The notes: generated from the letters alone by a model not told the origin. Numbered from the stretch's first letter, positions 36,136-41,607 are shown. The stretch is DNA of 64,000 bases from Escherichia coli (GCA_031701365.1 GCA_031701365.1_4118.1), one strand, 5' to 3'. Translations and numbers: made by a program.

Positions 36136-36163
36136 TTGACTTTTTATACAATTCATATATTAT
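36136..36163 (+). promoter_or_regulatory. sigma70-like promoter for family B array
   Basis: TTGACT-16-TATTAT; SD AAGGGAG; first gene ATG 36194. Confidence 0.55.
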
Positions 36164-36193
36164 ATGATTGATATTATTTTCAAGGGAGTCCCT

Positions 36194-36391
36194 ATGCGTA
36201 TTTTAACTCAAGCAGAACACCACGAAAGACTTATCAATAACATGGCTATGATAATGTATAAGTCACATGAACGTGGTATTGCCTATAAGCGTGAATTAAT
36301 TATGGCACTATTCATTGGAACTAACTTTCAGGAAAGGTATGTCAAGGATTGGATTTGGTATTTAATTGAAGATGTAACGAGTAAACTATGA
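36194..36391 (+). CDS. small protein, paralog family B
   Basis: start placed at MRILTQAEH; motif FIGTNFQERY. Confidence 0.6.
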   Translation: MRILTQAEHHERLINNMAMIMYKSHERGIAYKRELIMALFIGTNFQERYVKDWIWYLIEDVTSKL

Positions 36392-36588
36392 AAATGCGTA
36401 AATTAACCGAAAAAGAATATCAATCACTGTTACGTAAAAACTACGTAAAGATTTACAATACAGACACACACGTAGAACGAATGGAGTTATACCTTTTGAT
36501 TACATTGGGAACTAACTATCAGGATGCATGGGTGATTCAATATATGGATGCATTGAAAAATGAAATATTGTCCACGAGGAAACAATGA
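36388..36588 (+). CDS. small protein, paralog family B
   Basis: 66 aa; ATGA overlap; LGTNYQDAW. Confidence 0.65.
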   Translation: MKMRKLTEKEYQSLLRKNYVKIYNTDTHVERMELYLLITLGTNYQDAWVIQYMDALKNEILSTRKQ

Positions 36589-36794
36589 AAACTATAACAC
36601 GAACCCAATCATTCGGACTTATCTTGAAATACATGGACTTAATGGTGGATATCAGCAAAGACCTGCCTAAAACTGCAATTGAAGTTGCAAGAGCAGAGAT
36701 CCGCATGTTGGCTGTACTGAACACAAACCATCAGGAAGAGTATGTTGACGATTGGATTCGATTTTTAATAGAAGATATTAAGAGTAAACTATGA
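36585..36794 (+). CDS. small protein, paralog family B
   Basis: 69 aa; ATGA overlap; LNTNHQEEY. Confidence 0.65.
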   Translation: MKTITRTQSFGLILKYMDLMVDISKDLPKTAIEVARAEIRMLAVLNTNHQEEYVDDWIRFLIEDIKSKL

Positions 36795-37003
36795 TTATAT
36801 TAACACCTGAAGAATATAAGAAACGTTTTAAATCTGTCCAGGCTGAAATATTACTTATATACCTTTCAAATGCAGATCTTAACTTATCAAGGGTAATGGA
36901 GAAGGATTTACTTATGGGTGCATTTTTGGATACAGACTTTCAGGAGTATTATGTAGGAGAATACTTTATTGCACTTCAGAACCACATTAAGAGTAAACTA
37001 TGA
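36791..37003 (+). CDS. small protein, paralog family B
   Basis: 70 aa; ATGA overlap; LDTDFQEYY. Confidence 0.65.
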   Translation: MIILTPEEYKKRFKSVQAEILLIYLSNADLNLSRVMEKDLLMGAFLDTDFQEYYVGEYFIALQNHIKSKL

Positions 37004-37215
37004 TTATTCTAGAAAAATCATATCAATATACTGAACGCATCGCTGCCAGACAACTTGAAATCCTCATAATATACGAAGAGACTTCTGATTTAAACTTAGC
37101 CGAGGTATTGGAAAATGAAATACTTTTGGGTGCATTCTTGGGAACAGACTATCAGGAGTATTATGAGGAAAAGTATTTGTCATCTCTTGAGAAATACGTC
37201 AGGAGCAAACTATGA
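37000..37215 (+). CDS. small protein, paralog family B
   Basis: 71 aa; ATGA overlap; LGTDYQEYY. Confidence 0.65.
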   Translation: MIILEKSYQYTERIAARQLEILIIYEETSDLNLAEVLENEILLGAFLGTDYQEYYEEKYLSSLEKYVRSKL

Positions 37216-37439
37216 AACATTTAAGTAATATAGAGAAGAATAAAATTATCATTGCTGTAATAAACAAATATTTTACACTTCCACAAAAAGAATGTTTATC
37301 TATAAGGGAACACAGGATAAACACCACCGAGATTCGCATGTTGGCTGTACTGGGGACTAACTTCCAAGAAGGCTATGTTCATGAGCACATCGTTGCACTC
37401 ACTAATTACATAATGGACAAATGTAATGAACATCATTAA
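37212..37439 (+). CDS. small protein, paralog family B
   Basis: 75 aa; ATGA overlap; LGTNFQEGY. Confidence 0.65.
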   Translation: MKHLSNIEKNKIIIAVINKYFTLPQKECLSIREHRINTTEIRMLAVLGTNFQEGYVHEHIVALTNYIMDKCNEHH

Positions 37440-37650
37440 TAACTTTGAATACGAGGCCCGTGCTAAGAGTGCCAGAAAAAAAGAGAACACCATTTACTTC
37501 ACTATGATGTACTTACAATGGACTGAGATTGAAGAAAAGGTTGCTGAAGTATGGATGTTGGAATTCATGGGGACGCAGTATCAGAATAGGTTTGCGGGTG
37601 AGTATATCAATGTTCTTATGAAACAAATAGAAAGAAAGGAAAAGAACTAA
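37426..37650 (+). CDS. small protein, paralog family B
   Basis: 74 aa; MGTQYQNRF. Confidence 0.6.
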   Translation: MNIINNFEYEARAKSARKKENTIYFTMMYLQWTEIEEKVAEVWMLEFMGTQYQNRFAGEYINVLMKQIERKEKN

Positions 37651-37808
37651 TGGTTTTCATTAACATATCTGACCAACTCGATACTAAACTAAAAGTCGAG
37701 AAGAGTGAGGGATGGATGCTGTACTTTCTTGGAACTTCTCATCAGAATTTTTATATCCATGAACACATAGTTGCACTCACAAATCTAATAAGGGATAAAT
37801 GCAAATGA
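37650..37808 (+). CDS. small protein, paralog family B (short copy)
   Basis: 52 aa by manual translation; LGTSHQNFY. Confidence 0.45.
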   Translation: MVFINISDQLDTKLKVEKSEGWMLYFLGTSHQNFYIHEHIVALTNLIRDKCK

Positions 37809-39642: not shown

Positions 39643-39881
39643 ATATTGTGAATAACATCAGATTAGCAGAAAGATTTGATAGAATTGGGGAAGCACTGAG
39701 AAGATACGATAAAGAATATGGTCATTTGAGCTTTTCTATAGAAAAGAGATATGAACTTGAAGCAGAGTTTAAAATGCAGAGTCTCTTAGGCACACAGTAT
39801 CAAAACCAATATATTCAAACTTGGATTGATTGTTTAATCCAGACAATTTACGTAAGGAACATTAAATGCAAAATGAAATGA
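39639..39881 (+). CDS. small protein, paralog family B
   Basis: 80 aa; LGTQYQNQY. Confidence 0.65.
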   Translation: MNIVNNIRLAERFDRIGEALRRYDKEYGHLSFSIEKRYELEAEFKMQSLLGTQYQNQYIQTWIDCLIQTIYVRNIKCKMK

Positions 39882-40111
39882 TATACTTAACATATAATGA
39901 ATACGTCGAGAGATTAGTTAGTGCCAAGAGATATACAAATCAACTTCCTCACAACCCAAACCAAACCCCAGAGGAAAAGAATGCGGAAGCTCTATTCCAA
40001 GCACTACCATACCTTCTTGGAACTGATAGGCAGGAGTATCACGTTGAACGTATAATTAAATCTCTTAAAATCACTATTAAGGAAAAGATACATGAAGCAC
40101 TTGACAGATGA
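39866..40111 (+). CDS. small protein, paralog family B
   Basis: 81 aa; LGTDRQEYH. Confidence 0.6.
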   Translation: MQNEMIYLTYNEYVERLVSAKRYTNQLPHNPNQTPEEKNAEALFQALPYLLGTDRQEYHVERIIKSLKITIKEKIHEALDR

Positions 40112-40322
40112 TGAACATGGGCTTATAGTAATGGATGTAATCAACATCGAATACAAAAAGTTGATACGCTACCGTTGTTATGAAGATAAGCAACTAGTTC
40201 TAGCAGAACAGAAGTTGTTTCGACTCTTAAACACAAACTACCAAGCACAATACGAAGAATCGTATATGTACCTTTTGGCGAGGAAAGCAAAAAGAGATTA
40301 TGAAAATTTTAAGCAAAGGTGA
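40092..40322 (+). CDS. small protein, paralog family B
   Basis: 76 aa; LNTNYQAQY. Confidence 0.6.
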   Translation: MKHLTDDEHGLIVMDVINIEYKKLIRYRCYEDKQLVLAEQKLFRLLNTNYQAQYEESYMYLLARKAKRDYENFKQR

Positions 40323-40521
40323 TTCAGTAATATTACTTATAGAGAGTTCAAGTAAATTCTTAAACATAACACTGTCTGATATAGATGAAGATGATAAAGA
40401 AGTACTGAGAGCAGATTTAAGAGTACTGTTGCATCTCGGAACAAACCTACAAGAAGAATATGTAGAGTACTACATTGATGAACTTAAAGAATCAGTACTG
40501 AGAAGATGCAAATGCGAATGA
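40300..40521 (+). CDS. small protein, paralog family B
   Basis: 73 aa; LGTNLQEEY. Confidence 0.6.
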   Translation: MKILSKGDSVILLIESSSKFLNITLSDIDEDDKEVLRADLRVLLHLGTNLQEEYVEYYIDELKESVLRRCKCE

Positions 40522-40733
40522 TTACCGACGAAGAATACCTAACAATTATAAATGGATTGTTTTTGAAGTTGTTTGTTATTAACACATCAGATATACCAGA
40601 TATGGATAAAATTATTAAGAGAAATGAAATCTATGTTCTAGCTACCCTGGGAACTAACTATCAAGAATACGATATTAATGATTATATTAATACACTTAAA
40701 CGAGCGATTGAACTAAAATGCCAAAACCACTAG
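40506..40733 (+). CDS. small protein, paralog family B
   Basis: 75 aa; LGTNYQEYD. Confidence 0.65.
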   Translation: MQMRMITDEEYLTIINGLFLKLFVINTSDIPDMDKIIKRNEIYVLATLGTNYQEYDINDYINTLKRAIELKCQNH

Positions 40734-40933
40734 GAACAGCAGAATACATTGAACTCATGGGATTACACTTCTCATCCTTTCAGAAACTTATGCGAGAATC
40801 AAAGAATGATTTAGAATATACCATCAGAGGTTCAGATTTAAGAATGCTTCTCACCCTAGACACAGATTCCCAAGAGCGTTTTGTCAATGAGCACATTAGA
40901 GCACTTTTAATGGAAATTAAAAGTAAACTATGA
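40718..40933 (+). CDS. small protein, paralog family B
   Basis: 71 aa; LDTDSQERF. Confidence 0.6.
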   Translation: MPKPLGTAEYIELMGLHFSSFQKLMRESKNDLEYTIRGSDLRMLLTLDTDSQERFVNEHIRALLMEIKSKL

Positions 40934-41145
40934 AGATAATATCAAATCAAGAGTACTTGGCACTATTCAGAAAGAATAATCACAAATTTATGGCACTTGA
41001 TTCAAGAACTGATATAAGTGAACTTGAAAAAAATCTTTTGCGTTCAGAGATGATAGTACTGACACTCTTAGGAACACAGCATCAAGAAAGAACTGTTAAT
41101 TCACACATAGAAATACTTAAGAAGCTTATACAGGAAAAGTTATGA
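40930..41145 (+). CDS. small protein, paralog family B
   Basis: 71 aa; ATGA overlap; LGTQHQERT. Confidence 0.65.
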   Translation: MKIISNQEYLALFRKNNHKFMALDSRTDISELEKNLLRSEMIVLTLLGTQHQERTVNSHIEILKKLIQEKL

Positions 41146-41363
41146 GAATCATAACACAACAAGATATTCTTAAGTTCACAAGGGTTCATGCATCTGAATT
41201 TGATGCTATATTATCAAAAAGTTACAACAACCCTTATACAGAAGATGTACACTACAATGAATTATGGATGTATATACTTTTAGGTACAGATCATCAAGAG
41301 CAAGCCGTACAGAGGTATTTGAGTGCTTTAAGTACTGCTACTGCTAATGGAGTATGTGTTTAA
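41142..41363 (+). CDS. small protein, paralog family B
   Basis: 73 aa; ATGA overlap; LGTDHQEQA. Confidence 0.65.
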   Translation: MRIITQQDILKFTRVHASEFDAILSKSYNNPYTEDVHYNELWMYILLGTDHQEQAVQRYLSALSTATANGVCV

Positions 41364-41364
41364 T

Positions 41365-41607
41365 ATGAAAGTACTGACAGAATTAGAAATGTATCATAGA
41401 TTTAATAAGTACTATCATTTACTTAAACCTATACAGAGGATTAAGTGTCCCTTTGTAGTGAAACAGGTATTAATTTATGAGCATAAGTTATTTGTATCAT
41501 TAGGTACGAATGAACAAGAGTATTATTTGAAGTTGTACTTGATTACATTAATAGATTTAATTCACTATAAAACCAAACAAGCTAATAAAGAGAAATATGA
41601 AAACTAA
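41365..41607 (+). CDS. small protein, paralog family B
   Basis: start placed at MKVLTELEMY; LGTNEQEYY. Confidence 0.6.
   Translation: MKVLTELEMYHRFNKYYHLLKPIQRIKCPFVVKQVLIYEHKLFVSLGTNEQEYYLKLYLITLIDLIHYKTKQANKEKYEN

Follow-up and report, generated by a model that had tools for sequence, protein, structure and literature searches.

A tandem array of small paralogous genes, here called family B, was found in a 64,000-nucleotide stretch of the Escherichia coli assembly GCA_031701365.1 (GCA_031701365.1_4118.1), referred to below as the window. Listing of the open reading frames (ORFs) revealed 25 consecutive ORFs of 52-96 codons on the + strand between 36164 and 41607, and four outlying members on the same strand further downstream. 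A hidden Markov model (HMM) built from the 29 sequences recovered 28 of them in leave-one-out searches (E 1e-21 to 2e-6) and detected no additional member among the 970 six-frame ORFs of the window. Both the array and its outliers had been proposed in an earlier, sequence-only reading of the window, with which these tests agree; 25 contiguous genes and 28 of 29 members recovered characterise a tandem lineage-specific expansion.

The window originates from a jumbo coliphage of the Asteriusvirus type (121Q/G17/PBECO4 group). Megablast of positions 36000-42000 matched 36 phage records, all of them Asteriusvirus-type jumbo phages of E. coli or Salmonella, and gave zero matches against complete E. 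coli genomes. DNA identity was 94.5% over 84% of the query for phage 121Q and 90% over 96% for phages G17 and Sharanji, and the genes under the matches are all annotated as hypothetical protein. Six genomes were used for the comparisons between isolates: the window, 121Q, SP27, vB_Ec-M-J, G17 and WPEC3.

Alignment of the members reproduced both motifs described earlier. The N-terminal motif has the column frequencies M 82%, K 48%, x, L 62%, T 41%, x, x, E 71% and Y 60%, and the C-terminal motif L 75%, G 86%, T 96%, N 51%, Y 48%, Q 96% and E 65%, followed by L (96%), I (72%) and K (75%). The claim that the proteins usually end in SKL or IKL did not hold, as SKL was found in 5 of the 29 and EKL in one more; the conserved C-terminal feature is K followed by L or C. 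The sole leave-one-out failure was gene 11 (ORF 38264-38527, MTGTDKTAITKSIDMF), in which GT is kept, Q is lost and six residues are inserted. It was aligned in register with the family by hhalign (probability 32%, E 5e-4), its AlphaFold2 model has the same three-helix topology as that described below (predicted local distance difference test, pLDDT, 77), and its orthologs are 85-98% identical with a ratio of nonsynonymous to synonymous substitution rates (dN/dS) of 0.2-0.3. Gene 11 is therefore a probable divergent member. For gene 1, the ATG at 36164 abuts the -10 hexamer of the upstream promoter and is replaced by AGG or TGG in SP27 and WPEC3; the start was for this reason placed at 36194, which has a GGAG Shine-Dalgarno sequence. 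The coordinates of all features are listed in the table.

Table. Family B genes, promoter-like sites and terminal repeat in the window
Feature	Coordinates	Strand	Remarks
Inferred direct terminal repeat (DTR)	15904..36096		one collapsed copy, ~20 kb; homology to vB_Ec-M-J DTR ends
Sigma-70-like promoter TTGACT-16-TATTAT	36136..36163	+	~40 bp past DTR edge; promoter scan, conservation
Gene 1	36194..36391	+	65 aa; start refined from 36164
Gene 2	36388..36588	+	ATGA junction
Gene 3	36585..36794	+	ATGA junction
Gene 4	36791..37003	+	ATGA junction
Gene 5	37000..37215	+	ATGA junction
Gene 6	37212..37439	+	ATGA junction
Gene 7	37426..37650	+	14-nt overlap
Gene 8	37650..37808	+	52 aa, lacks helix 1; G17 ortholog 97% identical
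Gene 9	37805..38062	+	alternative start 37799; protein used for AlphaFold2 model
Gene 10	38040..38291	+	longest ORF from 38019
Gene 11	38276..38527	+	probable divergent member
Gene 12	38511..38726	+	longest ORF from 38466
Gene 13	38723..38941	+	longest ORF from 38684; ATGA junction
Gene 14	38938..39150	+	alternative start 38932
Gene 15	39147..39392	+	ATGA junction
Gene 16	39379..39642	+	longest ORF from TTG 39352
Gene 17	39639..39881	+	100% identical to SP27, vB_Ec-M-J, WPEC3; 47% to 121Q, G17
Gene 18	39878..40111	+	alternative start 39866
Gene 19	40092..40322	+	most conserved slot, 92-100% between isolates
Internal sigma-70-like site TTGACA-17-TATAGT	40101..40129	+	11/12 match; kept in all five phages compared
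Gene 20	40300..40521	+	
Gene 21	40518..40733	+	alternative starts 40506 and 40512
Gene 22	40718..40933	+	
Gene 23	40930..41145	+	ATGA junction
Gene 24	41142..41363	+	ATGA junction
Gene 25	41365..41607	+	longest ORF from 41347; last of contiguous array
Outlying member 26	42572..42787	+	leave-one-out E 9.5e-14
Outlying member 27	42757..43023	+	leave-one-out E 7.5e-8
Outlying member 28	55066..55284	+	GS replaces GT; leave-one-out E 7.7e-8
Outlying member 29	55262..55453	+	leave-one-out E 5.4e-12

The paralogs are strongly diverged, with protein identities of 15-51% (mean 32%), and their identity does not decay with distance along the array (rho 0.06), which rules out recent tandem duplication. 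At the DNA level repetition is confined to the surroundings of the GGAACAAACTATCAAGA motif, where some 40 nt are 62-85% identical and recur with a period of about 212 nt. An assembly artefact or collapsible repeat was ruled out by the protein identity of about 32% and by the shortness of the shared DNA; the concern that reassembly might collapse the array is answered by this low identity and by the recurrence of the array in 36 phage records, and the array is not a product of chance either. That the array acts as DNA, for instance as iterons or an origin, was also rejected, on the basis of dN/dS values below 1 and the strong fold signal.

Structure prediction, one of the checks suggested with the first reading, yielded a three-helix bundle for the protein of gene 9 (AlphaFold2; pLDDT 97.8, predicted template modelling score 0.82) from an alignment of the 29 paralogs alone. 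The predicted helices span residues 6-24, 31-45 and 52-84, residue 2 bridges residue 49, and the N-terminal residues pair with the loop between helices 2 and 3. In the model the T-x-x-E and T-x-x-Q motifs begin helices 1 and 3 and meet at one pole of the bundle, where they may serve as helix N-capping boxes, and the remaining conserved columns are hydrophobic with i, i+3/4 and i+7 spacing. The conserved residues of the family would accordingly form the hydrophobic core and two N-caps, while other surface positions and the net charge appear to vary freely. Isoelectric points (pI) range from 4.4 to 9.85 and charges from -7 to +7, with about half of the members basic, and the grand average of hydropathy (-0.81 to 0.10) gives, as an average alone, no hint of membrane segments. 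Structural comparison of the predicted bundle found no informative neighbour, and a sequence profile search of the PDB gave no informative match for the family.

These properties bear on whether the paralogs might be small nucleic-acid-binding regulators, like the zinc-ribbon expansion of phage G (PMC7824862). That analogy, the early location beside a promoter-dense region and the basic half of the members are consistent with such a role, which we nevertheless regard as highly improbable: pI values go down to 4.4, and the conserved residues correspond to core and caps, not to a basic recognition helix. No helix-turn-helix, ribbon-helix-helix or zinc-ribbon motif or fold was recognised in the family, and its pI is not uniformly basic. 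Uniform nucleic-acid binding is thus disfavoured by the charge spread and the lack of a DNA-binding signature.

Comparison of the six genomes revealed that copy number varies between isolates, as the sequence-only reading had suggested should be checked. The main array has 23 genes in 121Q, 25 in the window, 26 in SP27 and vB_Ec-M-J, and 29 in G17 and WPEC3. Of the 173 members counted over the six genomes, 170 are full length. Orthologs occupy syntenic slots, some of which have been swapped: slot-wise identity is 47-100%, and reciprocal best hits showed a patchwork of 121Q-like and G17/SP27-like cassettes, in which many window slots are 97-100% identical to 121Q, whereas others are identical to SP27 or G17 but only 47% identical to, or absent from, 121Q. 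Identities of the N-terminal and C-terminal halves of paralogs are uncorrelated (rho 0.09; for example 6% in the N half with 73% in the C half), and the discordant halves are paralleled by matching DNA segments D9-D11. Therefore, exchange at the conserved motif is suggested.

The median dN/dS between orthologs was 0.37 (interquartile range 0.28-0.49) and the pooled value 0.43, with 2% of pairs above 1; selection on the orthologs is purifying but relaxed. The intact copies, this constraint and the confident fold mark the members as real coding genes. Median protein identity to vB_Ec-M-J was 76.8% for the array, 92.5% for the DTR genes and 72.9% for the genes downstream of the array. The idea that the array is an exceptional divergence hotspot was rejected, since its faster divergence holds against the DTR genes (p = 1e-5) and not against the downstream genes (p = 0.43). 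The region from 36 to 64 kb consists throughout of unknown, fast-evolving genes.

The array could be a near-neutral or weakly selected lineage-specific expansion, in which a large capsid of headful type tolerates the DNA added by tandem duplication and the proteins are individually dispensable and lack specific targets. Hua et al. (2017, PMC5646251) attribute the 121Q array to growth of the genome through tandem duplication, in line with a ratchet idea, and the copy number of 23-29, the relaxed dN/dS of 0.37-0.43 and a divergence equal to that of neighbouring accessory genes all fit this view. The paralogs are old (mean identity 32%, none above 51%), yet 170 of 173 are intact with orthologs in syntenic slots. 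Neutral DNA at such divergence in a genome of 34% GC would be riddled with stop codons, so the intact copies argue against neutral filler. The fold signal is moreover very strong, and the tandem habit persists in a divergent contig and in Klebsiella phages. We therefore consider this explanation unlikely, and the survival of very old copies in intact form speaks against pure filler DNA.

All 24 internal junctions of the array fall within -22 to +3 nt. An ATGA-type overlap of 4 nt is possible at 14 of them, fewer than the "nearly all" first reported, and the genes at the remaining 10 either overlap by 7-22 nt or lie within 3 nt of each other; yet there is no intergenic spacer at any junction. 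The single terminator-like match on the + strand of the array, at 41190, is weak (5 pairs, 3 GC). With each start overlapping or abutting the previous stop and no internal terminator, the array has the layout of an operon, and from this arrangement co-transcription and some translational coupling are plausible. The overlaps do not imply the roughly stoichiometric co-expression that had been read from them; serial reinitiation at weak Shine-Dalgarno sites would more likely give an expression gradient that falls along the array.

Tight junctions were found at 25 of 25 positions for the array genes and the junction to the next gene, at 45 of 53 among the unrelated genes of 41.6-64 kb and at 15 of 16 in family A, a second set of small genes to the left of the DTR. 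Of the 48 junctions in the DTR, 35 are gaps exceeding 40 nt (median 73.5), and the layout switches at the DTR edge from genes of monocistronic style to tight packing from 36.1 kb on. As packing is tight in unrelated downstream genes and in family A, it is a style of the whole non-DTR early region and not of family B alone, and it does not mark the special architecture that had been attributed to the array.

Spacer-free junctions with 14 ATGA overlaps, together with two conserved motifs at one pole that could provide a shared interface (beta-bridge 2-49), would suit a hetero-oligomer assembled inside the cell, for example as a scaffold, compartment or DNA-associated structure, whose formation is helped by co-translation. 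However, members are gained, lost and swapped for alleles of 47% identity, which would be incompatible with a fixed complex; only scattered copies occur in Klebsiella relatives, tight packing is common to unrelated neighbours, and charges spread from -7 to +7. Such an assembly is very unlikely in our judgement, and a fixed hetero-oligomer in particular is disfavoured by the gain, loss and replacement of members.

The DTR was placed by blastn of the annotated DTR ends of vB_Ec-M-J onto the window, so that its edges are inferred from homology; in vB_Ec-M-J the DTR is annotated at 1-21525 and the family B array begins at 21624. The DTR of phage fEgEco12 is 20,993 bp as confirmed by PhageTerm and restriction digests (PMC13070987), and the terminal repeats of Sharanji, G17 and CBB are about 20-22 kb. 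A search of IMG/VR for an exact 28-nt pattern taken from the conserved region at the DTR end matched 121Q alone. The homology-inferred right edge lies about 98 bp upstream of gene 1. Since the window runs uninterrupted across this right-end junction, it represents a collapsed circular permutation, with the layout of ten RCC1-like genes (787-11661, minus strand), family A (11765-15619), the DTR and then family B.

The 250 bp across the DTR edge and the TTGACT-16-TATTAT promoter show 96% column identity in six phages, which exceeds the 84-94% DNA identity of the whole array region to other phages. The array promoter lacks the AGTACTG spacer motif typical of DTR promoters. The DTR holds 10 of the 11 perfect TTGACA-N16-18-TATAAT sites of the window (0.22 expected window-wide), and no perfect sigma-70 site was found within the array. 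The site at 40101 sits inside the array at the start of gene 19 and matches sigma-70 more closely than the promoter at 36136. Thus, of the single promoter proposed at first, the conserved sigma-70-like site at 36136 stands, but with a conserved candidate inside the array it may not be the sole one; the conservation of this putative site may merely mirror the conserved coding sequence of gene 19. The related phages PA5oct and CBB are reported to depend on host RNA polymerase or to possess RpoD-like early promoters (PMC7318152; PMC5259590).

Several further sequence features were noted in and around the DTR. The ten perfect promoters lie at 19691-34339 among mostly widely spaced small genes, and the TTGACA-17-TATAGT site recurs at 41974-42002, just past the gene that follows the array, where it is likewise conserved in each of the five phages under comparison. 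The palindrome CAGTACTG, noted for 15825-35114 and for the window as a whole, has 57 copies (0.85 expected): 34 are in the inferred DTR, 12 of these in its ORF-free 1.7-kb leader, one copy is in the family B array, none is in 40500-50417, and 15 are found again at 50.4-62.5 kb. In the perfect sigma-70 promoters (...AGTACTGTATAAT) it makes up the spacer or extended -10. It includes the ScaI sequence AGTACT and may be an operator or a modification site. The leader itself, the left 1.7 kb of the inferred DTR (15904-17580), has no convincing ORF and is dense in repeats, among them a (AAACGGCT)n tandem (16690-16790), copies of TGGATTTTGGGCGTAG and numerous CAGTACTG pairs in inverted orientation; packaging, replication or end protection are candidate roles for this region. 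The motif AAAGGGATTGR is present in four copies (30092-30119, 32685-32712, 36045-36055 and 55527-55537; 0.09 expected), of which two form a 12-bp stem-loop (AAAGGGATTGACTC[C/A]GGTCAGTCCCTTT) enclosing a -35 hexamer and one is located about 40 bp ahead of the DTR edge.

Database searches placed the array in a known but uncharacterised family. Nine of ten members tested matched phrog_4148 of PHROGs, a group of unknown function, with E values of 4e-15 to 2e-25 over positions 1-73 of 74; gene 11 had no match to phrog_4148, and Pfam has no family for the array proteins. An exhaustive profile search of 1.84 billion representatives found 97 proteins at E <=1e-3, nearly all of 52-96 residues. The sole match of 269 residues is a read-through fusion of a family B member with the downstream gene in phages EC.P1 (PQ657772.1, 338002-338808) and UB (MH383160.1); the C-terminal part of the fused downstream gene has homologs in the Klebsiella phages RaK2 and K64-1.

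With the family consensus as tblastn query, matches came from 32 phage records of Escherichia, 4 of Salmonella and 7 of Klebsiella. A 14-kb stretch of Klebsiella phage Muenster (Alcyoneusvirus) contains nine members, arranged in clusters of 1-3, and scattered copies occur in Klebsiella Rak2-like phages; restriction of the family to Asteriusvirus is ruled out, as Klebsiella Alcyoneusvirus phages carry it. A divergent metagenomic contig of 9 kb (L008, Logan SRR22590159) encodes 13 consecutive overlapping members and two more; one extra member on it has 122 residues with a C-terminal extension. As the family is carried by Klebsiella phages and by this contig, it is older than Asteriusvirus, in which it was consolidated and expanded.

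The tandem array had already been noted in 121Q by Hua et al. (2017, mBio, PMC5646251), and that array and the one in the window are of the same family at the same locus. More than 30 members were given for 121Q, against 25 family B members counted here in the 121Q stretch examined; the higher figure may pool family A or rest on other criteria. No earlier account includes the motif, the fold, the adjacency to the DTR, the mosaic evolution or the copy-number range of members that are on average 32% identical, and no paper characterising the family was found in our literature search. We conclude that the array is known through phrog_4148 and 121Q yet uncharacterised.

Known functions were sought by several routes. 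PADLOC gave single-member matches only, to five unrelated models with E values of 6e-4 to 0.035; no sequence or fold similarity to known anti-defence proteins (Acr, anti-restriction-modification, Ocr/Ard, Tad/Acb and similar) was found, and the database searches run showed no similarity of the array proteins to known immunity or defence proteins. No Rfam family or tRNA was detected anywhere in the window. The array genes gp467c-gp489c of phage phAPEC6, a different isolate, were absent from its 62-protein virion proteome as determined by mass spectrometry, by which small proteins are under-detected. No transcriptome for Asteriusvirus was found in the literature searched. The immunity or anti-defence function proposed in the sequence-only reading is still a hypothesis: the copy number of 23-29, slot alleles of 47-100% identity, variable surfaces and absence from the phAPEC6 virion are in its favour, and the lack of similarity to known proteins is not.

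An immunity-type repertoire in the strict sense, in which each paralog neutralises a toxin or exclusion effector of competing phages, plasmids or abortive-infection systems, would account for small helical tandem proteins with variable surfaces, cassette exchange and variable copy number. Among persistent infections of E. coli isolates Asteriusviruses are over-represented, and as they persist in host cultures superinfection pressure is plausible (bioRxiv 10.1101/2024.12.31.630880). No toxin domain was found in the ten immediate downstream neighbours scanned, which have no Pfam domain and match only PHROGs of unknown function, and there is no similarity to a known immunity family. We hold this explanation to be distinctly unlikely, although it overlaps with the reading we prefer and the two are inseparable by sequence alone.

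The reading we prefer, tentatively and at somewhat less than an even chance, is that one small, soluble, non-virion protein underwent an old expansion that selection has maintained, and that its paralogs act singly as host-directed binders. A long polycistronic message would be made from the array by host RNA polymerase early in infection; such early transcription is supported by the conserved promoter region, the promoter density of the DTR and the precedent of PA5oct and CBB. The family would diversify by in-register recombination at the short DNA motif coding for GTNYQ and at gene junctions, and this would explain the changes in copy number, the replacement of whole slots between co-circulating phages and the shuffling of N-terminal and C-terminal halves. 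Each paralog might bind a different host target or target variant, either a defence or toxin component or a target of host takeover, so that the array would act as a repertoire widening the range of exploitable host strains rather than as a fixed multi-subunit machine.

Several points weigh against host-directed binders. Selection is purifying along the genes and not positive, and the array diverges no faster than unrelated downstream genes (76.8% versus 72.9%). Small proteins easily escape virion mass spectrometry, and the near-invariant T and Q could be a shared functional site instead of helix caps. A more specific form, which we think unlikely, is a recombination-shuffled repertoire of adaptors or inhibitors, in which the conserved pole (K-x-L-T-x-x-E-Y with G-T-N-Y-Q) would dock onto a common machine and the hypervariable helical faces would each capture a different target in host defence or physiology, the repertoire thereby shaping host range or persistence.

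Other paralogous sets are present in the window. The ten tandem genes of 358-433 codons at 787-11661 (minus strand) are annotated as "regulator of chromosome condensation" (RCC1-like) in vB_Ec-M-J; gp003-gp010 of phAPEC6 ("DNA condensation protein" or hypothetical), which were detected in the virion, may be their counterparts. The run of about 17 genes of 59-81 codons in family A is interrupted by one gene of 223 codons and stops about 285 bp short of the DTR, so that arrays A and B flank the repeat in the concatemer. Family A was rejected as a relative of family B because its consensus, MNxEHKEFY...LIYRY, is different as judged by eye. Downstream of the array there are a phrog_13866 pair (41597-41941 and 42250-42594), a phrog_19795 pair (43742-44287 and 44524-45126) and, at 50043-63838, a long run of genes of 120-195 codons joined by 4-nt overlaps.

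About 2% of a genome of about 350 kb is thus spent on variants of one 70-residue scaffold, kept intact, reshuffled and placed first after the terminal repeat. For most jumbo phage genes no function is known; in phAPEC6 this holds for 83% of the predicted proteins. If the paralogs are host-directed binders, the family provides natural variants of one very confidently predicted fold, in about 100 sequence clusters (97 representatives at 50% identity), for screens against E. coli defence systems and essential machines. Such screens could shed light on host range and on why Asteriusviruses persist in bacterial cultures, which is relevant to their proposed therapeutic use. If they are dispensable, the array is a clean case for the idea of a capsid-size ratchet driving genome growth by tandem duplication.

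Paralog arrays with variable copy number and recombination turnover lie by the terminal repeats of African swine fever virus (ASFV; multigene families MGF110, MGF360 and MGF505) and of poxviruses (ankyrin and kelch genes, the "genomic accordions"), where they act in host range and immune evasion. With a docking pole and variable faces, the array would be a phage counterpart of these terminal multigene families; the viruses, proteins and hosts are unrelated and selection is purifying here, and the likeness is architectural only. The orphan immunity-gene arrays of polymorphic toxin systems (Zhang et al. 2012, PMC3482391) resemble family B in being tandem, small, often helical and recombined as cassettes, whereas family B has no toxin gene or domain among the immediate downstream neighbours scanned and no immunity-family homology. 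The phage G zinc-ribbon expansion of about 35 copies (Iyer et al. 2021, PMC7824862) is likewise a lineage expansion in a jumbo phage with unproven function, its copies being proposed as transcription factors or DNA-binding proteins; its fold differs from the three-helix bundle of the array, which has no metal ligands and no indication of nucleic-acid binding. Finally, in phage SPO1 (PMC6873191), as in the phage of the window, a long terminal repeat is accompanied by dozens of small early genes that host RNA polymerase transcribes and whose host-directed functions are mostly unknown. The SPO1 genes are mutually unrelated and located inside the repeat with their own strong promoters and ribosome-binding sites, whereas the array is a single family outside the repeat with a weaker promoter. 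Location within the terminal redundancy and strong early promoters of their own are found for the DTR genes and not for array B, and it is these DTR genes that match the style of SPO1.

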